A stretch of DNA of 32,000 nucleotides from Megasphaera elsdenii DSM 20460 (GTDB lineage: Bacteria > Bacillota > Negativicutes > Veillonellales > Megasphaeraceae). The notes under the pieces were generated by a model. The model was not told the origin of the DNA, did no database searches, and saw nothing but the letters and a program-made list of their open reading frames with translations. The translations under genes and the position numbers were made by a program. The DNA lies in the NCBI RefSeq assembly GCF_003010495.1, contig NZ_CP027570.1, forward strand, positions 1,590,001 to 1,622,000. Reading direction: 5' to 3'. This document shows, in pieces, positions 3,230 to 28,390 of the stretch; position 1 is the first letter of the stretch; every line of letters begins with the position of its first letter.

Positions 3230-3306
3230 GGGCGGTTAGCTCAGTTGGTTAGAGTATCTCGTTGACATCGAGGGGGTCGATGGTTCGAATCCATTATCGC
3301 CCACCA
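3230..3306 (+). tRNA. tRNA-Val (anticodon GAC), CCA encoded
   Basis: Cloverleaf folded by hand: 7-bp acceptor stem, D arm gctc/gagt, anticodon loop ttGACat, T loop ttcgaat, and a 3' acca. Confidence 0.9.
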
Positions 3307-3983: not shown

Positions 3984-4060
3984 GGGCGGTTAGCTCAGTT
4001 GGTTAGAGTATCTCGTTGACATCGAGGGGGTCGATGGTTCGAATCCATTACCGCCCACCA
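3984..4060 (+). tRNA. tRNA-Val (anticodon GAC), second copy
   Basis: Identical to 3230-3306 except for one acceptor-stem base (c4051 versus t3297), which changes G-U to G-C. Confidence 0.9.
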
Positions 4061-4109: not shown

Positions 4110-6007
4110 GTGCGCCCGGCATGGGCGCACTCTAATGGGTGAAAGTCCCTAAGCCGCCCGGTAGCGGGAAGGCTATAGCCAGAACCAAGGGTGTCCATCG
4201 TGAGATGGAATCTGAAGGAAGGTCGAGGCAAATCTCTGGTCTGACGAACAGAAATCACATAAGGCTAGTCATGGGGATAAGGCCGCCTAACAGGTTGAAG
4301 TCCCATAGCTACACGGAACCATGAATAGTAGATGTGGCAGACACATGGAGAGAAAGAGTGCGTTCTTACCCGGGGAGGCCTCATGGACATGATGGTGCCA
4401 TATAGATTGGACATCATGGTTGAAATAAGATTTATCATGAGGAGTCAGCCGAGGCCATAGTACCTTATGGGCTATAGACCATGAGGAAAGGGCCGAATCC
4501 TAGGAGATGTTAGTTAATGAAAGTAACCAATCATGGAATGAAAGACAGAAAACTTCATCAAGAAGGCTGTCCACAAAAAGAGGTTGCGGAACAACCGGGA
4601 TATGTGGAAGCGTCTGCCCATGCGAGGATTGCTGAACACAACGACATCATTGCAAGCTTGCCAGCGGACAGTCTGTTGAAGCAGATTTTATCACGAGACA
4701 ACTTAAATGGTGCCTATAAGAAGGTAAAGTCTAATCGAGGAACCGGCGGGGTCGACAGGATGAGTGTAGATGAACTTCTACCCTACCTGCGGGAACATCG
4801 CCTGGACCTCCTTCAGCAAATACGGAATGGGAAATATAAGCCCCAGCCAGTCCGTCGGGTTGAAATACCCAAAGAGGAAAAAGGGAAATTCCGGAAATTA
4901 GGAATCCCTACGGTCGTAGACCGCATGATACAACAGGCGATTACGCAGGTTCTTGTGCCTATCTACGAGCCACAGTTTTCAGATAGCAGTTTCGGGTTCC
5001 GTCCCAAACGGGGCGCCCACGATGCGTTGAAACAATGCCAGGCCTATGCAGATGAGGGCTATGTCTACGTCGTAGACATGGACTTGGAGAAATTTTTCGA
5101 CAATGTCTGCCAAAGCAAATTGATAGAAGTTCTGTCAAGGAGCGTAAAAGACGGCCGGGTCATCTCGCTGATACACCAATATCTCCATGCTGGTGTTATC
5201 CGGCATGGGATGTTCGAACGAAGTGAACAGGGGGTTCCCCAAGGAGGGCCATTGAGTCCGCTCTTGAGTAACATCATGCTGAATGAGCTGGATAAGGAGC
5301 TGGAACGGCGCGGACATAAATTTGTCCGCTATGCAGATGACTGCATGATACTCTGCAAAAGCAGAAGAAGTGCCGAAAGGACCTTGGAAAGCATCACTCG
5401 ATATATTGAGAAGAAATTATTTCTCAAGGTGAATCGAAATAAGACGCACGTAGCCCACATCCGCTATGTTAAATATCTGGGATATGGCTTCTACCGAAAG
5501 AATGGAAAATGCCGACTCCGGGTGCATCCGAAATCCATTACTAAGATGAAAGACCGTTTGCGGTTTATATTGAAACGAAGCAATGGAAAAGGAAACGAAG
5601 TGAGAGCCCTTCTATTGAAACGATTCATAAAGGGATGGGTGAATTACTTTAAACTAGCGAATATGAAGGAACTGCTAATTCAAATTGACAGATGGATTCG
5701 ACGCAAAATACGAACCATATACTGGAAACAATGGAAGAAGGTACGGACGAAACACCGGATGATAAGCCAATACGGCGCGCCCAAGTGGGTAGTGTTGGAA
5801 ATGGCTAACTGCCGAAAAGGTCCGTGGCGAGCAGCGGCAATGCTGAACTCAGTTCTTACGAATAAAGAAATAGCCCGCCTTGGCTACATAACCATGACGA
5901 GCTATTACAAGCAAGTATGCGAAAACTAGGAAACCGCCGTGTACCGAACGGTACGCACGGTGGTGTGAGAGGTCGGGATTTCTACTCAGAAATCCCTCCT
6001 ACTCGAT
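4110..6007 (+). mobile_element. Group II intron, probably bacterial class C (IIC), with an intron-encoded RT/maturase
   Basis: 5' GTGCG at 4110. Domain V-like helix at about 5934-5965 with a 2-nt 3' bulge and CGC at the triad position. Domain VI helix with a bulged A at about 6001. Size is about 1.9 kb, the IEP has no En domain, and the insertion is right after an intrinsic terminator. The 3' boundary is good to about +/-5 nt. Confidence 0.85.
4517..5929 (+). CDS. ltrA: Group II intron reverse transcriptase/maturase (no endonuclease domain)
   Basis: 470 aa. RT blocks are present, including GVPQGGPLSPLLSN and the catalytic YADD (RYADDCMILC). The maturase X region is rich in W/K/R. There is no C-terminal HNH. 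Confidence 0.93.
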   Translation: MKVTNHGMKDRKLHQEGCPQKEVAEQPGYVEASAHARIAEHNDIIASLPADSLLKQILSRDNLNGAYKKVKSNRGTGGVDRMSVDELLPYLREHRLDLLQQIRNGKYKPQPVRRVEIPKEEKGKFRKLGIPTVVDRMIQQAITQVLVPIYEPQFSDSSFGFRPKRGAHDALKQCQAYADEGYVYVVDMDLEKFFDNVCQSKLIEVLSRSVKDGRVISLIHQYLHAGVIRHGMFERSEQGVPQGGPLSPLLSNIMLNELDKELERRGHKFVRYADDCMILCKSRRSAERTLESITRYIEKKLFLKVNRNKTHVAHIRYVKYLGYGFYRKNGKCRLRVHPKSITKMKDRLRFILKRSNGKGNEVRALLLKRFIKGWVNYFKLANMKELLIQIDRWIRRKIRTIYWKQWKKVRTKHRMISQYGAPKWVVLEMANCRKGPWRAAAMLNSVLTNKEIARLGYITMTSYYKQVCEN

Positions 6008-10884: not shown

Positions 10885-11008
10885 AACGATTACTCTTAAA
10901 TTTGAAAGTCGATAAGATTTGAAATTTATAAAAATAAAAGCAAATAACATATTGACAAAGAAAGTATAAAGTATTACACTATATCCAACAAAGAAAATAG
11001 TAGAGACA

Positions 11009-11130: not shown

Positions 11131-12351
11131 ATGAGATTACGCGATGTAGGATTGACCAAAGAAGAAATCAAAGCCAAAGTAGACAAGTACATGATTGAAA
11201 CGTACGAACGCTTCGACATGATCGCCGAACGCGGCAAAGGCATGTACGTCTACGATGAAAACGGGACACCGTACCTTGATTTCTACGCTGGTATCGCCGT
11301 CAACAGCGCCGGCAGCTGCAACGACAAAGTCGTCCTGGCCGTCATCGACCAGTGCATGGACATCATGCAGACCTTCAACTATCCGTACACAGTACCGCAG
11401 GCCCTGCTGGCTGAAAAGATTTGCACGACCATCGGCATGGACAAGATCTTCTTCCAGAACTCCGGGGCAGAAGCCAACGAAGCCATGATCAAGATGGCCC
11501 GTAAATACGGCGTTGAACACTTTGGTCCCAACAAATACGAAATCATCACGGCAAAAGAATCCTTCCACGGCCGTACCTTTGGTTCCATGAGCGCTACGGG
11601 CCAGCCGGACAATGCCTGCCAGATCGGTTTCGGTGCCATGACGCCGGGCTTCAAATATGCTGAATTCAACAATTTGAAAGCCTTTGAAGATGCCATCACG
11701 GAAAACACCATCGGTATCATGGTCGAACCGGTACAGGGCGAAGGCGGTGTCCATCCGGCAACGAAAGAATTCCTCACGGGCCTGCGCAAACTGTGCGATG
11801 AAAAAGGCCTGCTCCTCCTCCTCGATGAAGTACAGAGCGGCTGGTGCCGCACCGGGGCTGTCATGTCCTACATGAACTACGGCATCAAACCGGATATCGT
11901 CTCTATGGCCAAAGCCCTGGGCGGCGGCATGCCAATCGCTGCTATCTGCGCCCGCGAAGATGTTTCCAAAGCCTTCACTATGGGTTCCCACGGCAGTACC
12001 TTCGGCGGCCATCCGGTCTGCTGCGCCGCAGCCTTGGCCGAAGTCAACGAACTGTTGGACAAAGACCTGGCTGGCAATGCCAAGAAGATGGGGGCATACT
12101 TCTTGGAACAGGCCCGGGAAAAACTGCCGCATCTGAAGGAAGCCCGCGGCCAGGGCTGCTTCTTGGGGCTTGAATTTGACGACAAGATCAACAGCGTCGA
12201 CTTGAAGCATAAATGCTTCGACAAACACATGCTGTCGACGGCTATCGGCGACCACGTCCTGCGCCTGGTTCCGCCGCTGATCCTCCAGAAGGAACACGTC
12301 GACAAGGCCATTGCCATCATCAAGGAATCGGTCGAAGAATTGGCAAAATAA
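11131..12351 (+). CDS. Class-III (ornithine/acetylornithine/GABA-type) PLP aminotransferase
   Basis: 406 aa. Motifs are FFQNSGAEANEAMIKMARKYG, LLLLDEVQSGWCRTG and the PLP lysine in SMAKALGGGMPI. RBS gggggag is present. Substrate specificity cannot be determined from the sequence. Confidence 0.88.
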   Translation: MRLRDVGLTKEEIKAKVDKYMIETYERFDMIAERGKGMYVYDENGTPYLDFYAGIAVNSAGSCNDKVVLAVIDQCMDIMQTFNYPYTVPQALLAEKICTTIGMDKIFFQNSGAEANEAMIKMARKYGVEHFGPNKYEIITAKESFHGRTFGSMSATGQPDNACQIGFGAMTPGFKYAEFNNLKAFEDAITENTIGIMVEPVQGEGGVHPATKEFLTGLRKLCDEKGLLLLLDEVQSGWCRTGAVMSYMNYGIKPDIVSMAKALGGGMPIAAICAREDVSKAFTMGSHGSTFGGHPVCCAAALAEVNELLDKDLAGNAKKMGAYFLEQAREKLPHLKEARGQGCFLGLEFDDKINSVDLKHKCFDKHMLSTAIGDHVLRLVPPLILQKEHVDKAIAIIKESVEELAK

Positions 12352-12437: not shown

Positions 12438-13031
12438 ATGAAACATTTCGTCATTACCGTGGGATGTGAATTCGGCAGCGGCGGCCCGGAAATCGGCAAG
12501 ATGCTGGCTAAGTCGCTGGGAATCGAATACTACGACCGGGATCTCGTAGATAAAGTCGTGGAAAAAATCGGCGTAGAAAAACATCTCGTAGAAGAAGCAG
12601 ATAACAAGAATTTCGTTCCGTATGGCATCGAAACATCGTTGGGAACGCGCTATGCGAATTTGTCCAACAAAGTCATTTACACGCAGTTCGACGTCATCCG
12701 CAAGATGGCAAAGACATCGTGCGTCATCATCGGCCGGTGCAGCGACTATATCCTGAAGGGGCAGGAAAATGTCGTCAACGTCTTCATTTATGCACCGACA
12801 GAAGTACGTATTAAGACCATCATGGAAAAGATGAACTTATCCGAACGCCACGCGGCAGAAGTCATCCGTGATTATGACAATGCTCTCCATAGACGGTATA
12901 AATACATTACCGGGACCTATCGCGGTGACCGTCACAACCGGCACCTGCTGGTCGACAGCAGCGTCCTGGGCTGGGAAAAGACGGCGAAGTTCATCAAATC
13001 TTTCGTCGAAATGCGTTTTGAAGAGACTTGA
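12438..13031 (+). CDS. Cytidylate kinase-like family protein (P-loop NTPase, function unknown)
   Basis: 197 aa. GCEFGSGGPEIGKMLAKSLGIEYYDRDLV matches the Cytidylate_kin2-type N-terminus. Confidence 0.75.
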   Translation: MKHFVITVGCEFGSGGPEIGKMLAKSLGIEYYDRDLVDKVVEKIGVEKHLVEEADNKNFVPYGIETSLGTRYANLSNKVIYTQFDVIRKMAKTSCVIIGRCSDYILKGQENVVNVFIYAPTEVRIKTIMEKMNLSERHAAEVIRDYDNALHRRYKYITGTYRGDRHNRHLLVDSSVLGWEKTAKFIKSFVEMRFEET

Positions 13032-13044: not shown

Positions 13045-15627
13045 ATGGCGACAAAAAAGTCTGATTTTGATAAAGTCCTGAGTGCTTGGGACGTCCTGGT
13101 CATCGCCTTCGGGGCCATGATTGGCTGGGGCTGGGTCGTATCGACGGGCGACTGGATCATGCAAGGCGGCGTCTTAGGCGCCATGCTGGGGTTTGCCATT
13201 GGCGGCGTCATGATTTTCTTCGTCGGCCTGACCTATGCCGAACTGACGTCGGCTATGCCGCAGTGCGGCGGTGAACATGTCTTCAGTTATAAGGCCATGG
13301 GGCCGCTTGGTTCTTTTGTTTGTACCTGGATGATCGTTTTAGGGTATGTCGGCGTCGTCTGTTTCGAAGCCTGCGCCCTGCCGACCATCGTAGCTTATAT
13401 TTATCCTGATTTCCTGGCAGGCTATCTGTATACCGTTGCCGGTTTCGATATTTACGCTTCCTGGCTGGCCGTAGCCATTCTGGTTTCTGTCTTCATTACG
13501 GCCATCAATATCATCGGGACCAAGACGGCAGCTATTTTGCAGACGATCCTGACGGTCATCATCGGTGGCGTCGGTATCCTGCTCATCGCGGCTTCGGCCC
13601 TGACCGGTACGGTATCGAACCTGGAAGGCCAGCTGTTCATGGGGGCGACGACGACGGATATGGTCAAAGGGACCCTGGCCGTTGCCGTCATGACGCCGTT
13701 CTATTTCATCGGCTTCGACGTCATCCCGCAGGCTGCCGAAGAAATTTCTGTATCCTTGCAGAAAATCGGCCGCATCCTCATCTTGTCCATCGTCCTGGCC
13801 GTCCTCTTCTATGCGCTCATCATCTTCGGCGTCGGCTATGTCATGAATAATGCAGAAATCTCCGTCGCCATGAAAAGCGTCGGCGGCCTGGTCACGGCTG
13901 ATGCCATGGCCGTCGCTTTTGGCAGCTCCATCATGGCCAAGGTCCTCATCATCGGCGGCCTCTGCGGCATCATCACCAGCTGGAACTCCTTCCTCATCGG
14001 CGGCAGCCGCGCCATGTACTCCATGGCTGAATCGTATATGATCCCGCGGGTCTTTGCCAAATTGCACGATAAATATAAGACGCCTGTCAATGCGCTCTTG
14101 CTCATCGGCCTCTTGTCCATCATCGCGCCGTTCTTCGGCAAAAAGATGCTGGTCTGGGTCGTCGATGCCGGCAACTTCGGCTGCTGCGTCGCCTACTGCA
14201 TGGTCGCTATTTCCTTCGTCATCCTTCGTAAAAAAGCACCGGACATGGCTCGTCCTTATAAAGTCAGCCATTATAAACTCGTCGGTGCCCTGGCTATCCT
14301 CATGTCGGGCTTCATGGTCGTCATGTACGTCGTCCCCGGTTCCGGTGCTACCCTGGTTCCGCAGGAATGGGGCATGGTTCTCAGCTGGTCAATCCTGGGC
14401 GTCCTCTTCGGCCTCTATTGCAAGGCTAAATACGGCAGCAAGTTCGCTACCCATATCGACGTGGCCCTGGATAATGAAGCCGTCGAAGAAGCGGGCGACC
14501 TGGCTTTCGGTCAGGCTATGGCCGCAGCCCTTCAGAATGTCGAATCGGATGCGCCTGTCACCTATGTATCGCAGCCGCTCAGTTTCTCCTTCTCCATGCC
14601 GGTATCCGTCGTCTTTGGCGCCGGCAAGCGCCACCTGGCCGGGGAACTGTTGAAGTCCTATGGGACCAAGGCCCTGGTCGTCACCGATTCGGCGACGAAT
14701 GGACGGGACCTGGTCCGTGAAGTCGAAAAGAGCTTGAAAGATGCCGGTATCTCTGTGGCCCGTTTTGCCCACGTCACGGGGAAATCCCTGGATATTACGG
14801 CTGATTCAGCCGTCGATGAAATCAAGAAGAACGGCAGTGACTTCATCGTCGCCATCGGCGGCAATACCGTCATGGAAGGGGCCAAGATGATTGCCCGTGC
14901 CGCTGCCAGCACCCTGGGTCAGGCAATCCTGCCGCTGACCTTCGTGCCGACGAACTATCATACCGGTGCCTGCTTCGATGCATCCCTGCCCGACGGCAGC
15001 CGCGACCAGGCCCTGCTGGCAAAAGTCGTCATCGTCGATCCGGAATGTATGACCGGCATGAGCCAGAAAGAACGGGCCGTCTCGGGCTTTGCCGCCCTCA
15101 GTGAATGTATCAGTGCCTATACGGCAGCCGATGCCCAGCCGCTGACCGATGCCATGGCCCTCTACGCCATCGACATCTTGAACGATAAGCTGGCCGGCGT
15201 CTGCACCGATCATGCCGATAAAGGAGCTTGGGAAAAAGTCGTCCTGGCCGGCGTCATCGGCAGCATGGTCGCTGCAGAAACGGGCAGTCAGGTAGCCAAA
15301 GGACTGGCGCAAGCCGTCGCCAAGACCTCCTTCCCGGCTGACGAAGTGCTCTTGGCAGCTATCGTCCCTGTCGTCATCGATGCTAAAGCAGGGAAGGATC
15401 CCTTCCTCTATGGTAAACTGGCCCGCACGATGGGCGGCTTTACATCCGATGACTGTGCAGCCCGCCTTTGCTATCTGGCCAAGGCACTGCACCTGGACCT
15501 GCGCATTGCCGACATGGGCGTCCATGAAGACGATATCGCCACCATGGCCGAAGCCTATATCGGTGAGGAAGCAGCCGAAGCCGTCCAGGAAAAAGCCGCT
15601 GCCATGGAAGCCGCATTTGATTCGTGA
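13045..15627 (+). CDS. Fusion protein: APC-superfamily amino acid permease (aa 1 to about 480) plus a degenerate iron-type alcohol dehydrogenase-like domain (aa about 510-860)
   Basis: The N-terminal half has about 12 TM segments and the APC signature (LTYAELTSAMPQCGGEHVFSY). The C-terminal half follows the Fe-ADH fold order (VVFGAGK...ALVVTD...VAIGGNTVMEGAK...PTNYHTGAC...DPECM...GFAALSECISAY), but the metal and NAD motif residues are substituted. Confidence 0.8.
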   Translation: MATKKSDFDKVLSAWDVLVIAFGAMIGWGWVVSTGDWIMQGGVLGAMLGFAIGGVMIFFVGLTYAELTSAMPQCGGEHVFSYKAMGPLGSFVCTWMIVLGYVGVVCFEACALPTIVAYIYPDFLAGYLYTVAGFDIYASWLAVAILVSVFITAINIIGTKTAAILQTILTVIIGGVGILLIAASALTGTVSNLEGQLFMGATTTDMVKGTLAVAVMTPFYFIGFDVIPQAAEEISVSLQKIGRILILSIVLAVLFYALIIFGVGYVMNNAEISVAMKSVGGLVTADAMAVAFGSSIMAKVLIIGGLCGIITSWNSFLIGGSRAMYSMAESYMIPRVFAKLHDKYKTPVNALLLIGLLSIIAPFFGKKMLVWVVDAGNFGCCVAYCMVAISFVILRKKAPDMARPYKVSHYKLVGALAILMSGFMVVMYVVPGSGATLVPQEWGMVLSWSILGVLFGLYCKAKYGSKFATHIDVALDNEAVEEAGDLAFGQAMAAALQNVESDAPVTYVSQPLSFSFSMPVSVVFGAGKRHLAGELLKSYGTKALVVTDSATNGRDLVREVEKSLKDAGISVARFAHVTGKSLDITADSAVDEIKKNGSDFIVAIGGNTVMEGAKMIARAAASTLGQAILPLTFVPTNYHTGACFDASLPDGSRDQALLAKVVIVDPECMTGMSQKERAVSGFAALSECISAYTAADAQPLTDAMALYAIDILNDKLAGVCTDHADKGAWEKVVLAGVIGSMVAAETGSQVAKGLAQAVAKTSFPADEVLLAAIVPVVIDAKAGKDPFLYGKLARTMGGFTSDDCAARLCYLAKALHLDLRIADMGVHEDDIATMAEAYIGEEAAEAVQEKAAAMEAAFDS

Positions 15628-15641: not shown

Positions 15642-15679
15642 AAAAAAGGAGCTGTCGCACATGCGACAGCCCCTTTTTT
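15642..15679. terminator. Bidirectional-type intrinsic terminator after the permease fusion gene
   Basis: A6, stem ggagctgtcgca/tgcgacagcccc, T6. Confidence 0.85.
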
Positions 15680-15783
15680 CATATAACCAAAAGATTTTCT
15701 TTTTACCAGCAGGAGTTTGACAAGGCTGTGTAGAATATCTTAAGATAAACTAGTTATATCATAGTTGCTTGGAGGTAGTCATT

Positions 15784-16185
15784 ATGACACTCAGTTTATT
15801 TTGGTCGCGTTATACGCTGGAACTTCGGGAACAGCATTTGCGCGACGTCGATGAACTTTATCATTATCTCATTGCCCGGGAACGATGGAACTGGTTCCTG
15901 GCCAAGATCCCCGAACAGGCTCAGATCCAGATACTCCGGGGCCACAACCACGGGGAGGACTCCTGGACGTGCCGCAAGTGGCTCGACCACATGCTGGACT
16001 GGATCAAGGAAAACAAACCGCCTGCCGTCTATGATGCCGTCATCGACAAGATTCATATGATTGAAGACAAGCCTATTGAGGAACTGGAAAAACAGGCTGC
16101 CCGGAACATTTCGCCGGAAGAATTGGAAAAACTCCAGCGTGCCGGTTATTTTCAATGTATTGAGGCGCCGAAAAAAAGTGAATGA
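15784..16185 (+). CDS. Hypothetical Trp-rich cytoplasmic protein (133 aa)
   Basis: ATG 15784 is preceded by GGAGG at an 8-nt spacing. The track start at 15769 is a TTG. The stop overlaps the next ORF as ATGA. I recognise no motif. Confidence 0.6.
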   Translation: MTLSLFWSRYTLELREQHLRDVDELYHYLIARERWNWFLAKIPEQAQIQILRGHNHGEDSWTCRKWLDHMLDWIKENKPPAVYDAVIDKIHMIEDKPIEELEKQAARNISPEELEKLQRAGYFQCIEAPKKSE

Positions 16186-17510
16186 AAGCAGGTGAGGGAA
16201 TGACCTTTCTATTACGCATGATAACAGCTGCTGTCTTGTTCTTTTCCCTGGCAGCCGCCGCACCGGCTGCTGTCGTGCAGGCCGATTCCGTCCGCGTCCT
16301 GCCGATTTCCGGCGATATCGACGGCAGCCAGGCCGCCTTCATCCAGCGCGGTCTGCGCCAGGCCGCCGAAGAAGGGGATACGGCTGTCGTCATTACCATC
16401 AATACCTTGGGAGGCCGCGTGGACAGCGCCCTCAAAATCCGCGATATGCTCATGGCTTCCGACGTCCCGACCATCGCCTATGTCACGTCGCGGGCCTGGT
16501 CGGCCGGGGCCCTTATTGCCTTGTCGTGCCGCCATATCATCATGGCGCCGGGCAGCAGTATCGGCGCGGCCGAACCGATTCCCAACACGGAAAAGAACAT
16601 TGCCGCCTTAAAGGCCGAGTTCAGCGCGACAGCCGCCCAGAATGGCCATAATCCCGGTGTCGCCGAAGCCATGGTCGACAAATCCCAGGGCTATCCCGAT
16701 TATGCCGAACCGGGCAAGATATTGGCCTTATCTGACGGCCAGGCCAAGGAACTGAACGTGTCCGATGGCTCAGCCGATACGCTGTCCGAAGCCCTGGCCC
16801 TGTACAGCCTGGGCGATGCGTCATTGACGTACGTCGATAAGGATTGGCGCGACGACGTCGTCGGCATCTTGCAGAATCCCTATGTCCGGACCATCTTCGT
16901 CGCCTTGATCATCGCTGCCTTGCTGGCAGAAATCAAGATGGCCGGCATCGGCGCCGGCATCGCTACGGCCTTTGTCTTCGGCGGCCTGCTGCTCCTGTCG
17001 GGCAACGAGTCCCTGGCAGACGGCCTGAAAATCGTCGCCGCCTTTCTCGTCAGCCTGCTCTGCATCGGCCTGGAACTGGCGTCGCCCGGCGTCGGTATCT
17101 TCGGCCTGGCCGGCGTCGTCCTCTTGTTCGGCAGCCTGTTCTTCATGCTCGGGGCGACGTATGAAGCCGTCTACATCCTGGCTGGCGGGACGGTCCTGGC
17201 CATTATATTGTTTTATGTTGTCGGCAAGCACCTGCCCAAGAGCCGGCTCTTTGAAAAATTGACCCTCAAGAACCGTTCGACGAAAGAAAAGGGATATACG
17301 GCCCAGGCCGACTACAGCAAATATCTCTATGAACGGGGCAAGACCATTACTATCCTGCGTCCGTCCGGCACGATCCGCATCGGCAAAGAACGGGTCGACG
17401 CCGTGGCCAATGGGACTTTCATAGGCCGCGATGTCATCGTCCGCGTCGTCAAAGTCGAAGGCAGCCGCGTCGTCGTCGAACCGGAACCGGAACGCCATCC
17501 CAAACCCTGA
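16182..17510 (+). CDS. NfeD-family membrane-bound ClpP-class serine protease (YqeZ-like)
   Basis: It has a signal peptide, a ClpP-like domain ([16 protein letters not shown]...[12 protein letters not shown]), central TM segments and a C-terminal NfeD OB domain. An alternative start is ATG 16200. Confidence 0.85.
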
Positions 17511-17524
17511 GAAGGAGGTATCTT

Positions 17525-18565
17525 ATGTCTATCGTATCCTTTTTAGCCGTACCGATCATCATCATCGCCGCCGCTGTCATCGTCGTATCCTTGTTCCTGC
17601 ACTTCGTGCCCATCGGCTTGTGGATCTCGGCCATGGCAGCCGGCGTCTCCGTAGGCATCGTCAACCTTATCGGCATGCGCCTGCGCCGGGTCATACCGTC
17701 CAAGATCATCCTGCCCCTGGTCAAGGCCAATAAAGCCGGCCTCGACGTCAACGTCAATCAGCTGGAAGCCCATTACCTGGCCGGCGGTGACGTCGACCGC
17801 GTCGTCGACGCCCTCATCGCGGCCCATCGGGCGACGATGTCCCTGACCTTTGAACGGGCCTGCGCCATCGACCTGGCCGGCCGCGACGTCCTGGAAGCCG
17901 TCCAGATGAGCGTCAATCCGAAAGTCATCGAAACGCCGTTCATCTCGGCTGTCGCCCAGAACGGCATCGAACTGAAGGTCCGGGCCCGGGTCACGGTCCG
18001 CGCCAACATCGACCGCCTCGTCGGCGGTGCCGGTGAAGCGACGGTCATCGCCCGCGTCGGCGAAGGCATCGTCACCAGCGTCGGCTCGGCACGGGACCAT
18101 TCGCAGGTCCTGGAGAATCCTGACGAAATCAGTAAGACCGTCCTCAGCAAGGGCCTCGACGCCGGGACGGCTTTTGAAATCTTGTCCATCGACATTGCCG
18201 ATGTCGACGTAGGCCGCAACATCGGCGCCCGATTGCAGACCGACCAGGCCGAAGCGGACAAGCAGATCGCCCAGGCCAAGGCCGAAGAACGGCGGGCCAT
18301 GGCTGTCGCCAAAGAGCAGGAAATGCAGGCTTATACCCAGGAAATGCAGGCCAAGGTCGTCGAAGCCCAGGCCGAAGTCCCCCTGGCCCTGGCCCAGGCC
18401 CTGCGCGAAGGCAAGTTGGGCGTCATGGACTATTATAATATGAAGAATATCATGGCCGATACGGAGATGCGGAATGCCGTCGCCCAGGCCGGCGTCCCCA
18501 AGACCCAGTCGGTCCCGACCGGGCAGGACAGTCATCACGACGACCGGGGTCCGGCCGGAAAGTAG
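17525..18565 (+). CDS. floA: Flotillin-like protein FloA (UPF0365/YqfA family)
   Basis: 346 aa. It has an N-terminal TM hairpin followed by [43 protein letters not shown], typical of FloA. RBS aaggagg is present. Confidence 0.9.
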
Positions 18566-19845: not shown

Positions 19846-19930
19846 AAACCGCAAGGACGCGGAGTGTAAGAAATCATTCATCGTTACGATAGAAATGATT
19901 TTCTCCCGTCCTTGCGGTTTTATATTTTTT
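19846..19930 (+). terminator. Long extended hairpin plus T-run, either the terminator of the floA/hydrolase operon or a leader attenuator of the permease gene
   Basis: An 18-bp outer stem aaaccgcaaggacg(c)ggag/ctcccgtccttgcggttt, an inner 8-bp stem aaatcatt/aatgattt, and an apical stem atcg/cgat, followed by ttttatatttttt. Confidence 0.7.
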
Positions 19931-19977
19931 ATGGTTATCATTCATGTATCAGGGGATGTATAACAGGGGGGATAGGT

Positions 19978-21465
19978 ATGTCAAAGAATATTTTCCGAAC
20001 AAAAAGCATCAATCAGTTCCTATCGGAAACGAAACAAGACGGCGGCATGAACCGCGTCCTGGGGACGTTCGGTCTGACTATGTTGGGCATCGGCTGTATC
20101 GTCGGCACGGGGATTTTCGTCCTGACCGGGATTGCAGCGGCTAATTTTTCCGGGCCGGCCCTGGTCATTTCCTTCGTCATCGCAGCCCTGGCCTGTGGCT
20201 GTGCCGCGCTTTGTTATTCTGAATTTGCAGCCATGATTCCCGTAGCCGGCAGTGCTTACACCTACGGTTACGTGGCTTTAGGCGAATTTTGGGCCTGGGT
20301 CATCGGCTGGGATTTGATTTTGGAATATACCCTGGCGCTGAGCGCCGTTTCCATCGGCTGGTCCGGCTATTTCGGTAATATCCTGACGAATTTGGGCCTG
20401 GCCTTGCCGAAAGAGTTCATTACGGCACCGGAAGAAGGGGGCCTCATCAATTTGCCGGCCATGGCCATTATCTGGATCATCACTTTGATCAATATGAAGG
20501 GCATTACTCAGAGCTCCCTGGTCAATGACATCATCGTCGTCATCAAGCTGGCTGTCGTCGGCCTGTTCATCGCCCTCGGCGTCAGCCATGTCGACCCGGC
20601 TAACTGGACGCCTTTTATGCCCTATGGCTGGTCCGGTGTCTTTACCGGCGCTTCGGTCATCTTCTTTGCTTACATCGGCTTCGACGCCGTTTCGACGGCA
20701 GCTGAAGAAGTCAAGAATCCGCAGAAAGATTTGCCTCGCGGCATCATCTTATCGCTGGTCATCTGCACGGTCTTGTACATTGCCGTATCGGCTATCCTGA
20801 CCGGCATGGTCCCGTACTTGCAGTTCAAGACGACGGCCGCTCCCGTTGCCTATGCTCTGCAGCTCGTCGGTTATCATTGGGGTGCCGCTGCCGTATCGGT
20901 CGGCGCTATCTGCGGCCTCACGTCGGTTCTCCTGGTCATGTGCCTCGGCCAGAGCCGTATCCTCTTCGTCATGTCCCGTGACGGCCTGCTGCCGCGCTTC
21001 TTCGGCCATATCAACCAGAAGACCAAGACGCCGGTCCGCAGTTCCTTGTTAGTCGCCGTCGTATCGTCCATCCTGGCCGGCCTCGTTCCTATCGGCGTCG
21101 TCGCCGAAATGGTCAATATCGGCACGTTAGGGGCTTTCATCATCGTCTCGGCGTCGGTCATCATCCTTCGCAAGAAGGCACCGGACCGCGTCCGTCCGTT
21201 CCGCTGCCCCTTGGTTCCGCTCATTCCGATTTTGGCGATCCTCTTCTGCGGCGTCCTGGTCGTCATGCTGCCGACGATTACGCAGATCCGCTTCGTCGTA
21301 TGGCTGGCCATCGGCCTGGTCATCTACTTTGGCTATGGCTATAAGCACAGCATCATCACCAAAGCCCAGAAAGGTACCCTGACGGCTCCCGTTTCCGCGG
21401 CGGCTGAAGAACCGGCTCAGGCTCCGGCCCTTCACGAAGGAGCTCATTCCACTATTGAACACTGA
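19978..21465 (+). CDS. APC-family amino acid permease (cationic amino acid transporter/YfnA-like)
   Basis: Start is placed at ATG 19978 (MSKNIFRTKSINQF...). Motifs are GIGCIVGTGIFVLTG and SEFAAMIPVAGSAYTY, with about 13-14 TM segments. Confidence 0.88.
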   Translation: MSKNIFRTKSINQFLSETKQDGGMNRVLGTFGLTMLGIGCIVGTGIFVLTGIAAANFSGPALVISFVIAALACGCAALCYSEFAAMIPVAGSAYTYGYVALGEFWAWVIGWDLILEYTLALSAVSIGWSGYFGNILTNLGLALPKEFITAPEEGGLINLPAMAIIWIITLINMKGITQSSLVNDIIVVIKLAVVGLFIALGVSHVDPANWTPFMPYGWSGVFTGASVIFFAYIGFDAVSTAAEEVKNPQKDLPRGIILSLVICTVLYIAVSAILTGMVPYLQFKTTAAPVAYALQLVGYHWGAAAVSVGAICGLTSVLLVMCLGQSRILFVMSRDGLLPRFFGHINQKTKTPVRSSLLVAVVSSILAGLVPIGVVAEMVNIGTLGAFIIVSASVIILRKKAPDRVRPFRCPLVPLIPILAILFCGVLVVMLPTITQIRFVVWLAIGLVIYFGYGYKHSIITKAQKGTLTAPVSAAAEEPAQAPALHEGAHSTIEH

Positions 21466-21749: not shown

Positions 21750-21807
21750 CCCCATTTGTGGTAAAGTAGAGCCATGCGAAATATCATTGCAGAGGGGAGC
21801 TAGGAGA

Positions 21808-22782
21808 ATGGAAAAAAAGAAGATCTATGTATTGGCCTGCGGCGGGACCATTGCCGGCAAGGCTGCGTCTGCCGACGATTTGACGGGGTATGCTGCCGGG
21901 CAGACATCGGTCGGCGAATTGCTGGCCGCCGTACCGGAACTGGCTGAGTATGCCGATGTAGAAGGCGAGCAGTTCTGCAATATCGACAGTTCGGACATGA
22001 CCGAAGCCTTATGGCAGTCCCTGGCCAGCCGGGTACAGGAAGTGGCTGACCGGGAAGACGTGGACGGCATCGTCATCACCCACGGCACGGATACTATGGA
22101 GGAAACGGCCTATTTCCTCGACCTCACGGTCCACACCATCAAGCCTGTCGTCCTGACGGGCTCCATGCGGCCTTCGACGGCCATCAGTGCCGACGGGCCT
22201 TTGAACCTGTTGGAAGCCGTCCAGGCGGCGTCCTGGGCGGAATTGGGGAAATACGGCGTCGTCATCGTCATGAACAGCACCGTTCACAGCGCCCGCTTCG
22301 TCGAAAAGACCGATACGACCCATGCCGATACTTTCAAAGGCCGCCAGATGGGCTGCCTGGGCTACATGCAGGACGGCCGGACGTACTTGTACCAGCAGCC
22401 CCTGCGCAAGCATACGTGGTCGTCGGACTTGGCGTCTCCCAAAGACTTGCCGCCCGTGGCCATCGCCTATACCTATGTAGGCCTTACGGCCGATGACGTG
22501 TGCCGTCTGGCCCAGGGGAAGGCCGGTCTGGTCCTGGCCGGCCTCGGTCACGGTAAAGTGCCGGAACCGGTCTGGCAGGCCTTGCAGTCCCTCATGGCAC
22601 AAGGGCTCGTCGTCGTCCGCGCTGCCCGCGCCCTGGGAGGGATGGTCACGCCGGTCCCGGCTTATGACGGGACGATTACGGCTGATTCCCTGACGCCGCA
22701 GAAGGCCAAGATCCTCTTGCAGCTGGCCCTGGCCCATACGACGGACCGGGACAAGATACAGGCCATCTTCGACACGTACTGA
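21808..22782 (+). CDS. L-asparaginase, type II (AnsB-like) family, no signal peptide
   Basis: Start is placed at ATG 21808 with RBS aggag. Motifs are LACGGTIAG (catalytic Thr), HGTDTMEETAYFLDL and GSMRPSTAISADGP. Confidence 0.9.
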   Translation: MEKKKIYVLACGGTIAGKAASADDLTGYAAGQTSVGELLAAVPELAEYADVEGEQFCNIDSSDMTEALWQSLASRVQEVADREDVDGIVITHGTDTMEETAYFLDLTVHTIKPVVLTGSMRPSTAISADGPLNLLEAVQAASWAELGKYGVVIVMNSTVHSARFVEKTDTTHADTFKGRQMGCLGYMQDGRTYLYQQPLRKHTWSSDLASPKDLPPVAIAYTYVGLTADDVCRLAQGKAGLVLAGLGHGKVPEPVWQALQSLMAQGLVVVRAARALGGMVTPVPAYDGTITADSLTPQKAKILLQLALAHTTDRDKIQAIFDTY

Positions 22783-22908: not shown

Positions 22909-23937
22909 ATGAATAAGTACAAAAAATTGATGGCCATTACGGCCATGACGGCAGCTCTCGGCACGTCGGCTTTCGCCGCATCCACCGGGATCACGGACAT
23001 CAGCAATTATTGGGGCAAAGCGGCCATCCAGTATTTCTATAACCAGCACTACATCAGCGGCACCAACGGCCAGTTCCGCCCGAATGAAGACATTACCCGT
23101 GAAGGCGCTGCGGCCATCATCAACAACATGATCGGTGAAGATTCCAAAGTCAAGACGACGAATTTCAGCGACGTCAAAGGCCGCTGGTCTGAACGGGCCA
23201 TTGCCTCGCTGGTCGACAAACAGATCATGAGCGGTTACAGCAACGGCACGTTCAAGCCGGAACAGAAGATCACCCGTGAAGAATTTGCCGTCATCGCCTA
23301 CAACTACATGACCTATAAAGGCATGAGCACCCTCGAAGGCGCTGCACCTTATGCCGACGAAGCCAAGATTTCCAGCTGGGCCCGCCAGGCCGTCGATGCC
23401 CTGGCTGCTGCCGGCTATATGAAGGGCGGCAACTACAACATGTTCAACCCGAAACAGTACGTCACCCGCGGGGAAGCCGTCAACGTCCTCTACCGCATCC
23501 TGACGGGCGTCAAGGAAACGACGCAGAGCCAGGACGGCCTGGAAGCCAAGGCCTTCAAGGACATCAAAGACGTCTATGGTTCGGTCAAGGCCTTTGCCGC
23601 TGACGGCATCATGTACTGGCAGGGCGATAAGCTCCACATCGGCGTCAAGGATCCGAAGAACAAGCAGAAACTGGCCGACGCCATTGCCGCCGACAAGGAT
23701 ATCCCGGCTGAATCGGTCTACGTCCAGAAATCGACGTACAGCTACGACGATTATAAGAACCTCATGGCTCAGGCCGAAAAGATTTACAAGGCCACGGAAG
23801 CGACGAACGCCACCGTTTCGACCGAACCGGATTACCTCAATGAAAAGGTCGTCCTCACAGTCAGCTCCATTTCTAAAGAAACGCAGAATAATCTCAATAA
23901 AGCCCTGGGCAGTGCCCTTCGCATCGTCATTCAGTAA
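22909..23937 (+). CDS. Secreted SLH-domain protein (three SLH repeats plus an unknown C-terminal domain)
   Basis: It has a signal peptide (AMTAALGTSAFAA) and three SLH repeats of about 55 aa (e.g. FSDVKGRWSERAIASLVDKQIMSGYSNGTFKPEQKITREEFA). Confidence 0.85.
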   Translation: MNKYKKLMAITAMTAALGTSAFAASTGITDISNYWGKAAIQYFYNQHYISGTNGQFRPNEDITREGAAAIINNMIGEDSKVKTTNFSDVKGRWSERAIASLVDKQIMSGYSNGTFKPEQKITREEFAVIAYNYMTYKGMSTLEGAAPYADEAKISSWARQAVDALAAAGYMKGGNYNMFNPKQYVTRGEAVNVLYRILTGVKETTQSQDGLEAKAFKDIKDVYGSVKAFAADGIMYWQGDKLHIGVKDPKNKQKLADAIAADKDIPAESVYVQKSTYSYDDYKNLMAQAEKIYKATEATNATVSTEPDYLNEKVVLTVSSISKETQNNLNKALGSALRIVIQ

Positions 23938-23958: not shown

Positions 23959-25167
23959 ATGGTACGGAACAAAATCATTGCCTTTCTGGCAGCCGCTGCC
24001 CTCTTGTCAGTCAGTGCCGTTTCGGCCGATGCCCCTTATACGGACCTGGACAGCCTGACCGACCGCGCTGCCGTCGATTATCTCTATGACGCACAGTGCC
24101 TGACCTTCATTACAGGGACTTCCTTCGAACCGGACCGGGTCCTGACCCGCGGCGACCTGGCCCAGCTGCTCTATAATTCGGCAGCCAACATCCCCCTGGC
24201 ACCCCTCGGCGCTGCCAGCTATGGTGATGTGCCGTCCGGAACGGCGGGTGACGCCATGAACAGCGTCGCTGCCCAAGGCATCCTGGCCGGTTATGAAGAC
24301 GGGAATTTCCATCCCGAAGCGCCTGTGAGCCGCGAAGAGTTCGCCGGCGTCCTGTATCGCTACTTGCAGTACAATCACCTGGCCGACCCGGATCAGGATG
24401 TCAAGCCCTACGCCGATGCCGCGTCCATCGCTCCGGCCTATGCCAAAGCCATCGACGTCCTGCACAGCAAGAACATTATGGTGCCGGCAGACAATTATTT
24501 CCGGCCCAAAGAAGGCATGACCCGGGCCGATGCGGCTCAGGTATTTTACCGGCTCATGCATTCCGATGGCGATTATACGTCCCATGTCCAGGTCGAATCG
24601 CAGGTCATCAAGGCCATCAATGCCGAATACGGCTCGGTGCCGATTTACTTCCGCAGCGGTACGATGTACTGGGATGGCGATACCCTTGTCCTGGGCATCA
24701 AGGGCGCTCCCAGCAAGTACTTGAAACAGCGCCTCCGCGATGATGTGGCTAAAACGTCGGCCGTCCAGATCCGCCGCGCCGCCTTGAGCCACAGCGATTA
24801 CAGCCAGCTCATGACTAAGGCCATCCACTGCGTCGTCGACAACGAAGGCGTCCAGAACTACGTCGGCGCCCTGCCGGACTATGTCCATGAACAGATCGTC
24901 CTCACCGTCCGCCATCCCGTCAGCAAGGCCACCCTGGCCGAACTGGCCAAACGCGTCGGTACGGGACGGGTCCGCCTGGAAACGGCTCCCATTGCCGGTC
25001 AGGCTCCCATCGTCCAGGTAGCCGGACAGATGGAAGAAACAGCCGGTACGGATACGACGGCAACGACAGAAAATTCCAAAAAAGAAGTAAAGCAAGTCTA
25101 CTCGACCTTACTGGACGATGCCACGACCAGTGCCATCACCTCCGTCCAGAACGACGTGATGAAGTAG
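23959..25167 (+). CDS. Secreted SLH-domain protein, paralog of 22909..23937
   Basis: It has a signal peptide, three SLH repeats, and a C-terminal region alignable with the upstream paralog (YGSV...MYW.GD.L..G.K...DY..LM...PDY..E..VLTV). The Thr-rich tail is unique to this copy. Confidence 0.85.
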   Translation: MVRNKIIAFLAAAALLSVSAVSADAPYTDLDSLTDRAAVDYLYDAQCLTFITGTSFEPDRVLTRGDLAQLLYNSAANIPLAPLGAASYGDVPSGTAGDAMNSVAAQGILAGYEDGNFHPEAPVSREEFAGVLYRYLQYNHLADPDQDVKPYADAASIAPAYAKAIDVLHSKNIMVPADNYFRPKEGMTRADAAQVFYRLMHSDGDYTSHVQVESQVIKAINAEYGSVPIYFRSGTMYWDGDTLVLGIKGAPSKYLKQRLRDDVAKTSAVQIRRAALSHSDYSQLMTKAIHCVVDNEGVQNYVGALPDYVHEQIVLTVRHPVSKATLAELAKRVGTGRVRLETAPIAGQAPIVQVAGQMEETAGTDTTATTENSKKEVKQVYSTLLDDATTSAITSVQNDVMK

Positions 25168-26137: not shown

Positions 26138-28390
26138 ATGACAAACTTTTTGCCGTACGCTATCATAGCGGGCATAGCAATCGTCTTTTTTGTAATTTGT
26201 TATATTATGTATTCCGGCGGAGGACACTCCGAGAGTAGTCCCCAAACGGAGAAAAAGGGGAACACGAAGACGAAGACGCGCTACGACAGCGAGCCGCAGC
26301 CGATGCGCAGGGTCCAGCACCGCAGCCCGGCAACAGTTAAGCATGCCAGACAATTACCGAAGGAAGCGGACGACGAAGAAACAGCCCCCTTGCCGAAAGT
26401 CCCGAAAATGACCTTAGGCGAACGGCGGGAACATCCGGAAGAAACGGCTTTTGTCACGACCAAAGGAGAAGCTGTCCGCCGCAATGGCAAGATCGTCTAT
26501 AAAGAAGCGCCGAAAGCCCAGGAAACACCGGTCCGTAAGGGTCCCAATGCAGATGACCTCGATGCGACCCGCGTCTTGTCACGCGATGAAATTCTGGAAG
26601 CCATGGAAAAGGTAGATAAAGAAGAAGCCGCCGCCTATAAGGCACGGGAAGAAGAAGCCAAGCTGGCCCGCCAGCGCCAGGCTGAACAGGAAAAAGAAGC
26701 CCAGGAACAGCAGCTGGCCCGCAACCGGGAACGGCGCGAACAAGCCCGCCGCGAAGCAGCTGCCGCTAAAGAAGCCGATGCCCGCCGGGAAGAACGGGCG
26801 CGCTGGGCGAAAGAAGTAGCCCAGACAGAAGAAGACAAGCCGCCTCTGGCTGATATGGCTGCCATCGTCTCGGCTGACCTGGCCGCCAAAGATGGCGGTG
26901 CAGCCCCGGTGGTAAAGAAAAAGGCTGCCCCTGCTGCTGAACCGGCAGCATCCGAACAAGAAGTGCCGAAAGATACGCACCGCAAACACATTCTCCGCGA
27001 CGTCATGGCCGAAACGGCGAAAGCCGCTGGCCGGGCTGCTGCCGGGACAACCGTGGCTGCAGCCGCCTCGGAAGGGGCTAAGAAACGGGCCGTATCCGAT
27101 GCGACACGGGTCATGGAAGGCCCTGTCGTCAGCGAAGGCATGAAGGCCGTCGCTTCGCAGCTGGAACAGACCCAGCGCATGGAACCGATCCACATCGATT
27201 CGGCCATGACGGCCAAGAAGAAGGCTGTCCCTGAAGAAACGATGGTCATGCCGCCTATCCGGGCCCACAAGTCCCAGGAAAAAGCGACGCCTGTCGTTAA
27301 ACCGGCACCGGTCGTCAAACCGTCCCAGACGTCGTGGGATTCCAATACGTCCGGCACGGATACGCGCAATCCGTCCCTGGGCAGTGCGCCGCACTATGCG
27401 TCCATTTGGGAATCGGAAAGCACCGTCGATTCTCCCGTCGTCCGCCAGTGCGTCTCTCACTTCCTGCGCCAGTACGGCGTCGTTTCGCCGGACCTGCAGC
27501 AGCAGACGGAATACATCACGTCGGCTGCCTTCGACCAGATCGGCTGCCAGACCGATGCCGAACGGCAGCAGGCCCTGGCTCCGCTCATCGTCCAGGAAGC
27601 CTTGCAGAATGTCCAGAAAGCCTACGCCGCTCATCCCGACGACTATGTCGGTACCATTGCCCTTCAGGCTTTTTATGATATCGTTCATTGCTCGCCCATT
27701 TCGACGCGCCACCTGGTCGCCATCGATGCCTTGAAGGTCATGCCCTATTTGACCCAGGGCCATTACCAGATCCTGGCGATTCTCTTATTGTTCCTGTATT
27801 CGCGCAACTCCCACAATGTCGATAAAGATTCGTTCTGCCGCTATATCGATAAATACGTCTATCCCTTCCTGGATGGCTTCCCGACAGAACGGCCTTATTA
27901 CCAGCAGCTCGATTACCTGCACTGCACGGCTTTTGAAGCCAAGGAAACACATTTTGCCGAAATCCTGTCCGATTCGTATCCGCTCTTGTTCCGCTTCCGC
28001 GGCTTTACTGAAGAAGAATTGCGCAAGGCCCTCAAGGGCCAGCGGATCCCGGACGAATTTATCGTCCCGTCCTTCAATTCGCCCCTGGTCAAACTGGCCA
28101 TGGTCGACGAAAGCATGGCCAAACGCTTCTTCCGCATGACCGGCATCAACGACCGCAACATGCAGGACCATATCCTGCGCCTGGCCAAGAAGCGCCCGGC
28201 CAATTTCAGCGGCGAAGAAGCCCTGGACATCATGGAAGACATTTCGCCCGTCCTGGCCGACCTGGCCGATATCTGGGACAGCTCGCTGCTGCGCGTATCG
28301 ACGCTGTCGCTCCTGGGCCTGTACTTAGCCCAGGGCTTCGTCAAGGAAATCATTGGCGAAGAATTTGATTTGTCCCGCTGGTTTGAATAA
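26138..28390 (+). CDS. Large membrane-anchored protein: N-terminal TM, E/K/R/A-rich coiled-coil-like region, Ala/Pro-rich linker, conserved-looking globular C-terminal domain of about 330 aa, function unknown
   Basis: 750 aa with RBS aggagag. The TM is AIIAGIAIVFFVICYIMY. A charged repeat region spans about aa 150-260. The ORF ends 11 nt before the galU start. Confidence 0.75.
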   Translation: MTNFLPYAIIAGIAIVFFVICYIMYSGGGHSESSPQTEKKGNTKTKTRYDSEPQPMRRVQHRSPATVKHARQLPKEADDEETAPLPKVPKMTLGERREHPEETAFVTTKGEAVRRNGKIVYKEAPKAQETPVRKGPNADDLDATRVLSRDEILEAMEKVDKEEAAAYKAREEEAKLARQRQAEQEKEAQEQQLARNRERREQARREAAAAKEADARREERARWAKEVAQTEEDKPPLADMAAIVSADLAAKDGGAAPVVKKKAAPAAEPAASEQEVPKDTHRKHILRDVMAETAKAAGRAAAGTTVAAAASEGAKKRAVSDATRVMEGPVVSEGMKAVASQLEQTQRMEPIHIDSAMTAKKKAVPEETMVMPPIRAHKSQEKATPVVKPAPVVKPSQTSWDSNTSGTDTRNPSLGSAPHYASIWESESTVDSPVVRQCVSHFLRQYGVVSPDLQQQTEYITSAAFDQIGCQTDAERQQALAPLIVQEALQNVQKAYAAHPDDYVGTIALQAFYDIVHCSPISTRHLVAIDALKVMPYLTQGHYQILAILLLFLYSRNSHNVDKDSFCRYIDKYVYPFLDGFPTERPYYQQLDYLHCTAFEAKETHFAEILSDSYPLLFRFRGFTEEELRKALKGQRIPDEFIVPSFNSPLVKLAMVDESMAKRFFRMTGINDRNMQDHILRLAKKRPANFSGEEALDIMEDISPVLADLADIWDSSLLRVSTLSLLGLYLAQGFVKEIIGEEFDLSRWFE

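Follow-up and report, generated by a model that had tools for sequence, protein, structure and literature searches.

What is an alcohol dehydrogenase fold doing at the end of an amino acid permease? The question is raised by a single open reading frame (ORF) of Megasphaera elsdenii DSM 20460, located in a stretch of 32,000 nucleotides (contig NZ_CP027570.1, positions 1,590,001 to 1,622,000 of the forward strand) that we refer to as the window. The encoded protein of 860 amino acids consists of an APC-superfamily permease, a linker, and a C-terminal tail resembling the iron-containing alcohol dehydrogenases (Fe-ADHs). Judged by sequence criteria, the tail is a pseudoenzyme domain on the predicted cytoplasmic C-terminus of the transporter: it has the Fe-ADH fold, none of the metal ligands or canonical NAD(P) motifs remains, and it is under purifying selection. 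The features of the ORF are as follows, with positions counted from the first nucleotide of the window.

13045-15627, plus strand: permease-pseudoenzyme fusion ORF, 860 codons plus stop codon, ATG start
13045-14454, plus strand: APC-superfamily permease half, residues 1-470, about 12 transmembrane helices (Pfam AA_permease_2 at 12-441; helices of the AlphaFold2 (AF2) model)
14455-14589, plus strand: linker, residues 471-515, from the permease's own C-terminal cytoplasmic extension (predicted helix at 478-500; per-residue model confidence (pLDDT) below 50)
14497-14532, plus strand: linker motif D-L-A-F-G-Q-A-M-A-A-A-L of the Megasphaera clade, residues 485-496, absent from intact fusions
14590-15024, plus strand: degenerate Rossmann-like N-terminal subdomain of the Fe-ADH-like tail, residues 516-660 (Pfam Fe-ADH at 519-643; beta-alpha pattern in AF2, pLDDT 82-95)
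14686-14688, plus strand: Asp548 codon; Asp in all degenerate tails (19/19), Gly followed by SSxK in intact type-A tails (40/40)
14857-14886, plus strand: degenerate dinucleotide motif GGNTVMEGAK, residues 605-614 (canonical GGGSxxDxAK), from alignments
14947-14973, plus strand: degenerate motif PTNYHTGAC, residues 635-643 (canonical PTTxGTGSE), from alignments
15025-15624, plus strand: all-helical C-terminal subdomain of the tail, residues 661-860, metal site lost (Pfam ADH_Fe_C at 678-842; AF2 helices, pLDDT 74-92)
15085-15120, plus strand: former metal-site motif GFAALSECISAY, residues 681-692; Asp ligand replaced by Ala683 and His ligand by Glu687, from alignments
15298-15342, plus strand: former HxxxH...H segment, now K752...Q756...D766, without His, from alignments

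One reading frame with a permease and an alcohol dehydrogenase fold

A GAGGGGG ribosome-binding site lies about 8 nt 5' of the fusion ORF, which itself begins 13 nt past the stop codon of the preceding gene. Separate permease and ADH genes might have been joined here through a sequencing or assembly error, and related operons do contain the two as separate genes, some just 7-9 nt apart or overlapping by 1 nt. However, the identical 860-amino-acid sequence is found in 686 blocks of independent public assemblies, with a constant neighborhood in all of them. The exact protein (CCC73429.1, from M. elsdenii DSM 20460) is present on 327 contigs, including finished ones of 2.3-2.5 Mb and that of the type strain, and uninterrupted orthologous ORFs occur in more than 10 Megasphaera species and more than 45 other species. 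The recurrence in assemblies and finished genomes shows that the junction is not a frameshift or an assembly artefact; we assign such an error virtually no probability, and it is refuted for practical purposes. Database names for the exact protein vary between 'amino acid permease', 'iron-containing alcohol dehydrogenase' and 'amino acid transporter/alcohol dehydrogenase class IV'.

The N-terminal half of the protein is a complete APC-superfamily permease. The Pfam profile AA_permease_2 (PF13520) matches residues 12-441 with E=7e-40 over profile positions 1-416 of 427, and the AA_permease profile (PF00324) also matches (E=3e-31). The AF2 model has about 12-13 long helices between residues 14 and 466 at moderate confidence (pLDDT 50-79); a crude hydropathy scan was too noisy for a count of transmembrane helices. 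The last permease helix is directly followed by the K/R-rich sequence KAKYGSKF. The closest solved structures are the CAT/LAT-type transporters GkApcT and BasC, and identity in this half is 65-100% throughout the fusion family. No NCBIfam permease equivalog reaches its cut-off, the best scores being 170 against 557 for the 2A0306 subfamily, 135 against 690 for BcaP, and 129 against 382 for the ethanolamine permease. Indeed, no NCBIfam equivalog for either an ADH or a permease reaches cut-off for the window protein or for its intact relatives.

The full Fe-ADH fold spans residues 516-845. Pfam identifies Fe-ADH (PF00465) at residues 519-643 with 77 bits (gathering score 31) and ADH_Fe_C (PF25137) at residues 678-842 with 56 bits (gathering score 27). 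In a phmmer search of the PDB the tail aligns end to end with methanol dehydrogenase 8zwd (E=1.5e-20), FucO, DhaT and ADH2. The AF2 model, made from a 43-sequence family alignment, shows a Rossmann-like alpha/beta subdomain followed by an all-helical subdomain at pLDDT of about 80-95. The top Foldseek matches of the tail in the PDB all belong to the Fe-ADH family, with target-normalized TM scores of 0.67-0.81 over 350-400 columns, and include FucO, DhaT, ADH2, maleylacetate reductase and TauF (6jko). The tail thus has in common with the group-III Fe-ADHs (the lactaldehyde reductase FucO, DhaT, Zymomonas ADH2, Bacillus methanol dehydrogenase) their complete two-subdomain fold. However, it is only 20-26% identical to them, it lacks the Asp/His/His/His site, the GGGS loop and the HxxxH motif, and it is joined covalently to a membrane transporter. 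The best-scoring NCBIfam ADH model for the tail is ErcA (NF041833), by its model name a regulatory protein of the Fe-ADH family. The tail is not an ErcA member, scoring 92-95 bits against a cut-off of 550, and ErcA is soluble and standalone.

The positions of the metal ligands were read off alignments with canonical Fe-ADHs and with intact relatives of the fusion, in which the five columns are D, H, H, H and H. In the window protein the Asp is Ala683, the first His is Glu687, the HxxxH pair is Lys752 and Gln756, and the last His is Asp766; no His occurs anywhere in residues 740-780. Two loops that flank the cleft are deleted in the window tail and in P0073. As AF2 and Foldseek match the tail to the Fe-ADH family while its ligands and motifs are substituted, the fold is kept and the catalytic apparatus lost. 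Megasphaera proteins of this type that are labeled 'iron-containing alcohol dehydrogenase' or 'bifunctional' are almost certainly not dehydrogenases, so that their annotation should be corrected.

These results bear out in full the observation of a preliminary description made from the window sequence alone. It had proposed one ORF spanning both domains, and its positions for GGNTVMEGAK and for the metal-site motif are exact. The replacement of Asp by Ala and of His by Glu, which it had read from its own alignment, holds against canonical enzymes and intact relatives, as does the absence of His from the former HxxxH...H segment. Its pseudoenzyme reading is supported by the Pfam, AF2 and Foldseek comparisons, in which the Fe-ADH fold is recovered and the Asp, the three His, GGGS and TGSE are all substituted.

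Relatives of the fusion and origin of the degenerate tail

The preliminary description knew of no characterized permease of this architecture. While we also found no characterization in the literature (searches on the fusion, on PF13189, on Fe-ADH pseudoenzymes and on the protein accession returned nothing relevant), the architecture itself is far from unknown. A full-length search recovered more than 100 clusters of fusions of 845-897 amino acids, down to 58% identity, and several of these carry the NCBI name 'bifunctional amino acid transporter/iron-containing alcohol dehydrogenase'. Scanning species-representative genomes gave at least 579 relatives of at least the permease half, and the best 79 loci were analyzed gene by gene. 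Carriers among these loci include Megasphaera, Lachnospiraceae, Clostridium, Anaerostipes hadrus, Coprococcus, Blautia, Eggerthellaceae, Senegalimassilia, Mitsuokella and others, as well as Bifidobacterium (apri, moukalabense, erythrocebi and pongonis) and Pseudoscardovia. The ADH associated with the permease falls into the following states:

Type-A ADH, fused to the permease: 45 of 79 loci; intact (GGGS[IV]MDxAK, PTTCGTGSE, D/H/HxxxH/H); 32-39% identical to the window tail
Type-A ADH, separate gene: 3 of 79 loci; intact; gaps to the permease of 9, 7 and -1 nt
Type-B ADH, separate gene: 17 of 79 loci; intact (GGGSPMDVAK, PTTAGTGSE); from another lineage of Fe-ADHs, with identity of about 22%, never fused
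Permease only, or contig ends: 5 of 79 loci; signature not applicable
Degenerate fusion: 9 of 79 loci; signature lost; eight labeled Megasphaera and one labeled Lachnospiraceae on a 7-kb contig

At the split loci (n=20) the spacing between permease and ADH ranges from a 65-nt overlap to 135 nt. The full-length fusions examined from outside Megasphaera, 845-942 amino acids long, all contain GGGSxxDxAK, PTTxGTGSE and D/H/HxxxH/H. The taxonomic range of the degenerate form was taken from the full-length search and the genome scan. Searches with the tail alone and with a profile of degenerate tails mainly recovered standalone Fe-ADHs and fragments and were unhelpful for this purpose; an exhaustive search with the tail showed its isolation, with 11 representatives with E < 1e-30, the best match other than itself being 38-40% identical.

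The NCBI-named fusions, for example those from Anaerostipes hadrus, Clostridium sp., Lachnospiraceae and Bifidobacterium apri, resemble the window protein in their two-domain architecture, their junction (…K-Y-x-x-K-F-A/G-T/S-H-I-D-V…) and their operon. Over the full length they are 58-67% identical to it, and the permease half is 65-78% identical. Their ADH lineage is the one from which the window tail descends. However, they keep GGGSxxDxAK, PTTxGTGSE and all metal ligands, whereas the window tail has none of these, is shorter by two loops and is only 32-39% identical. The linker also differs, being a variable acidic spacer in the NCBI-named fusions and containing an invariant DxAFGxAM in Megasphaera.

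Among 167 full-length fusions, 128 have the full D/H/HxxxH/H and GGGS signature and 39 are degenerate. The five ligand columns of the degenerate fusions differ by lineage, reading AEKQD, ARHQY, MKKGY, ARCKY, ARRKY, AQAQP or TQEHP, and in degenerate relatives from metagenomes ADKKD, AQKLT, GHQTD or MRDRG. The start of the dinucleotide loop is likewise diverse (GGN, GGY, GGS, GTS, GSA, GQS). This diversity bears on whether the tail could still be an enzyme, with redox or other chemistry carried out through non-canonical residues or without a metal. The fold and the architecture of the cleft are retained, and Glu687 and Asp766 of the window protein could in principle bind a metal. However, Ala683 and Lys752 stand at two of the ligand positions and the dinucleotide loop is not conserved. 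Nor is any substitute set of catalytic residues shared, since almost every lineage has its own residues at the five columns, and we consider continued catalysis very unlikely.

Several observations indicate that catalytic function decayed in place. Against a hidden Markov model of intact type-A tails the degenerate tails reach 218-253 bits, compared with 31-71 bits against type-B. In a neighbor-joining tree of the permease half, calculated without bootstrap, the Megasphaera sequences group into a single clade that lies within the intact type-A fusions, and the junction after the last transmembrane helix (…KYxxKFA[TS]HIDV…) is common to this clade and to part of the type-A fusions. As the 39 degenerate fusions form a single Megasphaera-type clade whose tails descend from an intact type-A ADH, the loss followed the fusion. 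The earlier idea that a pseudoenzyme had been recruited to a transporter does not survive this comparison. In the simplest history, an adjacent permease-ADH pair would have been fused, the fusion would have spread among gut anaerobes, and catalysis would have been lost once, in the ancestor of the Megasphaera clade, with the former active-site residues drifting freely from then on.

We observed two further arrangements within the family. A metagenome contig (L090:1277-7830; ERZ27291348 k141_54894) contains a tandem duplicate of the fusion and of the cytidylate-kinase-like gene that precedes it. The two fusions, of 879 and 845 amino acids, are both degenerate (TKHRY and GHQRD), and both retain the tail and the DxAFGxAM motif. 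In Megasphaera sp. WILCCON 0056 (L009:6320-7840) a tail-less permease paralogue of 506 amino acids, 83% identical to residues 1-483 of the window protein, lies directly upstream of an aminotransferase gene in the same operon as a degenerate fusion.

The fusion closes a conserved operon that encodes a class-III aminotransferase, a cytidylate-kinase-like protein, the permease and the ADH, the last being either fused or separate. The two genes that precede it in the window are:

11131-12351, plus strand: class-III (ArgD/ornithine-type) aminotransferase, 406 amino acids, first operon gene (TIGR00707, 418 bits against a cut-off of 410)
12438-13031, plus strand: cytidylate-kinase-like protein (Pfam PF13189), 197 amino acids, second operon gene

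Conservation of neighbors was determined by clustering adjacent ORFs. An aminotransferase homologue lies just upstream on the same strand in 63 of 80 loci, and a cytidylate-kinase-like gene (about 200 amino acids) lies immediately upstream of the permease on the same strand in 61 of 80, in both cases in all branches. A helix-turn-helix-cupin (PuuR-like) regulator is found nearby in 28 loci. The four-gene operon is seen in most of the best 79 loci, largely in gut anaerobes. Two loci (L076 and L084) have the permease with the aminotransferase and/or cytidylate-kinase-like gene and no ADH. The two ADH lineages that occupy the same operon slot, A mostly fused and B always separate, are a case of non-orthologous replacement. 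Two aspects of the family appear to be new: the occurrence of split, fused-active and fused-dead states within one conserved operon, and a genus-level Megasphaera clade, with the much-studied rumen and gut species M. elsdenii among its members, in which the ADH half is apparently catalytically dead yet selected.

Constraint on the tail and its possible role

Ratios of nonsynonymous to synonymous divergence (dN/dS) were estimated by the Nei-Gojobori method, computed apart for the permease half and the tail:

Window and L009: tail 0.142, permease 0.061
L016 and L034: tail 0.068, permease 0.028
L012 and L034: tail 0.095, permease 0.023
L012 and L016: tail 0.114, permease 0.017

Comparisons of the window with L001-L008 were discarded, as these loci had been fetched by exact protein identity and dN is zero by construction. 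The ratio of dN in the tail to dN in the permease has a median of 5.50 in the degenerate clade (interquartile range (IQR) 5.03-6.66, 44 pairs) and of 1.31 in intact type-A fusions (IQR 1.14-1.51, 983 pairs). Relative to the permease, degenerate tails therefore evolve about four times faster than the tails of intact fusions. Median pairwise identities show the same relaxation:

Permease: degenerate clade 84%, intact fusions 72%
N-terminal subdomain of the tail: degenerate clade 35%, intact fusions 71%
C-terminal subdomain of the tail: degenerate clade 41%, intact fusions 64%

Taken together, the dN/dS values, the dN ratios and these identities show that the tail has lost much of its constraint but by no means all, and that purifying selection persists. 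At the level of single residues, degenerate tails vary freely at 117 positions where intact tails are at least 90% conserved, while 41 positions, mostly Gly, Pro and hydrophobic, are still common to both.

A functionless tail that decays neutrally, and has escaped deletion so far owing to its fusion with an essential permease, would account for the fourfold acceleration, the lost loops and the loss of every functional motif, and tail-less relatives of the permease do exist. However, the dN/dS of the tail (0.07-0.14) is far below 1. Every Megasphaera-type locus has an uninterrupted tail of about 345 codons that ends at the same C-terminal position, despite saturated dS between most of these loci. 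Split and tail-less relatives illustrate that one stop codon would suffice to eliminate the tail. In addition, the 41 conserved positions are fold-defining, the AF2 model of the tail is confident, and the tail is retained in both copies of the tandem duplicate. A neutral relic therefore seems improbable to us.

The linker is also constrained in the degenerate clade. Residues D485, F488, G489, A491, M492 and P511 are invariant in 19 of 19 non-redundant degenerate fusions, which have the pattern D-[LV]-A-F-G-x-A-M-A-A-A-[LM] where intact fusions have the variable acidic spacer. Permeases of split systems (L033, L057, L062-L087) have a conserved C-terminal extension of about 45 amino acids that is acidic and helical (…SDEDAAxL…LDxVIDAAIxRVL). 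At permease identities of 65-85%, the median identity of this extension or linker is 65% in split systems, 20% in intact fusions and 59% in the degenerate clade. We speculate that the extension may be a docking element where the ADH is a separate protein, that it may become dispensable once the ADH is fused, and that it may have come under constraint anew in Megasphaera. An amphipathic helix was considered for the linker motif and rejected, the hydrophobic moment being at most 0.28.

The preliminary description had suggested that the tail acts as a ligand sensor or gate or as a docking platform, and the invariant Asp548 and linker motif provide weak hints of such a role. As a sensor or gate, the dead ADH would still bind NAD(P)(H) or the aldehyde or alcohol of the pathway and tune transport allosterically to the redox or metabolite state. 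The position of Asp548, which is Gly in all intact type-A tails, is presumably that of the Asp that binds the adenine ribose in NAD-specific Fe-ADHs such as FucO. Furthermore, degenerate and intact tails alike conserve G605, A613, K614, P635 and T636 from the nucleotide-binding motifs, and both the purifying selection on the tail and the conserved linker motif would be expected of a sensor. However, conservation of the nucleotide-binding subdomain does not exceed that of the remaining tail (35% compared with 41% median identity), and its preferential preservation was rejected on these figures. Lineages differ freely in the GGGS loop, the window protein and P0073 have lost the loops beside the cleft, and variation is tolerated at the 117 positions that intact tails conserve. 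Asp548 is the only hint that nucleotide binding might survive; against it stand the unconstrained GGGS loop and the fact that both subdomains have eroded equally, and we regard a ligand sensor or gate as unlikely.

We consider it reasonably probable that the dead tail is now a structural or regulatory appendage of the transporter that works independently of catalysis, and that transport and transamination go on. In the ancestral system the permease would import an amine that is probably ornithine-like or an omega-amino compound. The aminotransferase would turn it into an aldehyde, and the ADH, whether fused, adjacent or docked, would reduce this aldehyde at the inner face of the transporter. 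In the Megasphaera ancestor the fused ADH lost all four metal ligands, the additional His of HxxxH and the GGGS and TGSE loops, the domain remaining folded, in frame and selected. The present tail may serve in assembly or dimerization of the permease or as a tether for the soluble proteins of the operon, with the DxAFGxAM motif as part of this role, and the aldehyde would be handled elsewhere.

More tentatively, the ADH-fold domain together with the C-terminal helix or linker of the permease may have a job independent of catalysis throughout the family, such as assembly or dimerization, tethering of the aminotransferase and the cytidylate-kinase-like protein, or ligand-controlled gating. We hold this broader proposal to be possible and somewhat doubtful. 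If it is true, it explains why about 345 dead residues were kept in Megasphaera and why the new DxAFGxAM motif arose there.

Several points weigh against an appendage of this kind. The AF2 model shows no confident contact between tail and permease (predicted TM score 0.44, linker pLDDT below 50). Since tail-less relatives exist (the paralogue in L009, and L076 and L084), the permease fold does not generally need an ADH domain. Synonymous divergence is unsaturated in just the four Megasphaera-type pairs given above, and the tree of the permease half has no bootstrap support.

If the broader proposal is correct, the M. elsdenii protein is a transporter with a pseudoenzyme regulatory module that evolved in place from the transporter's own metabolic partner. 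The tail itself appears to be a natural example of an enzyme domain that became a transporter appendage without enzymatic activity, in a family where the same fusion in many other gut bacteria looks catalytically intact. The family as a whole provides a natural experiment, with intact fusions in gut Firmicutes and Actinobacteria, separate genes, and a dead but selected form in one genus, by which non-catalytic use of a fused enzyme domain can be tested.

The operon pathway and the remainder of the window

Two short elements flank the operon in the window:

10952-10980, plus strand: promoter-like site TTGACA-17-TACACT upstream of the aminotransferase gene (consensus match only; the region has no more of these sites than expected from shuffling)
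15651-15680, plus strand: terminator-like hairpin at 15651-15670 (8-bp stem with 6 G-C pairs) and subsequent T-run, 24 nt past the fusion stop codon (consensus match only)

The hairpin likely marks the end of the operon, and the site at 10952-10980 is a possible operon promoter. No riboswitch or leader RNA was identified at Rfam gathering thresholds.

The best PDB matches of the aminotransferase are acetylornithine and ornithine aminotransferases. The cytidylate-kinase-like protein matches only the uncharacterized structural-genomics entries 3hdt and 3fdi, and its N-terminal loop reads GSGG…IGK, which is not a canonical Walker A motif. Its gene, where present, always sits between those of the aminotransferase and the permease. 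Because the pairing of aminotransferase and Fe-ADH recurs and two ADH lineages fill the same slot, the genes suggest a pathway in which an amine is imported, transaminated and reduced as the aldehyde. The operon likely represents an uncharacterized amine-to-alcohol route of relevance to gut nitrogen and amine metabolism. We also considered a pathway composed of an amino-alcohol kinase, a phospho-lyase of the class-III fold and an EutG-like ADH. This reading, though conceivable, is unsupported, as the aminotransferase scores as an ArgD/ornithine aminotransferase and the cytidylate-kinase-like family is without demonstrated kinase activity.

A comparable logic is known from taurine metabolism. 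In Bifidobacterium kashiwanohense taurine is converted through sulfoacetaldehyde to isethionate by the aminotransferase Toa and the Fe-ADH-family reductase TauF, and related taurine clusters contain an ABC importer, a standalone reductase and a separate exporter (PMC6616044). Like the window operon, these clusters of gut anaerobes combine a transporter, a class-III aminotransferase and an aldehyde reductase of the metal-dependent ADH family. However, their parts differ, and SarD and other equivalog models are far below cut-off for the window tail and its intact relatives. Taurine was therefore rejected as the substrate of the operon, and the resemblance is one of analogy only.

The fusion is followed in nearly all Megasphaera-type loci by the genes found at 15769-18565 in the window. 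These are a small conserved ORF (15769-16185; 133-138 amino acids) with no family match, NfeD (16182-17510) and the flotillin-like FloA (17525-18565). A second, unrelated APC permease with an AA_permease_C domain is encoded at 19912-21465 and adjoins an asparaginase gene (21787-22782). Upstream of the operon, two tRNA genes (3230-3303 and 3984-4057) precede RNA domains of a group II intron (RF02001 at 4194-4365 and RF01998 at 4423-4493), after which comes an ORF for an intron-type reverse transcriptase/maturase (4517-5929; RVT_1 and GIIM). The window further contains a 750-amino-acid ORF with no Pfam match (26138-28390) and SLH-domain proteins at 22909-23937 and 23959-25167, as expected for a diderm Negativicute.

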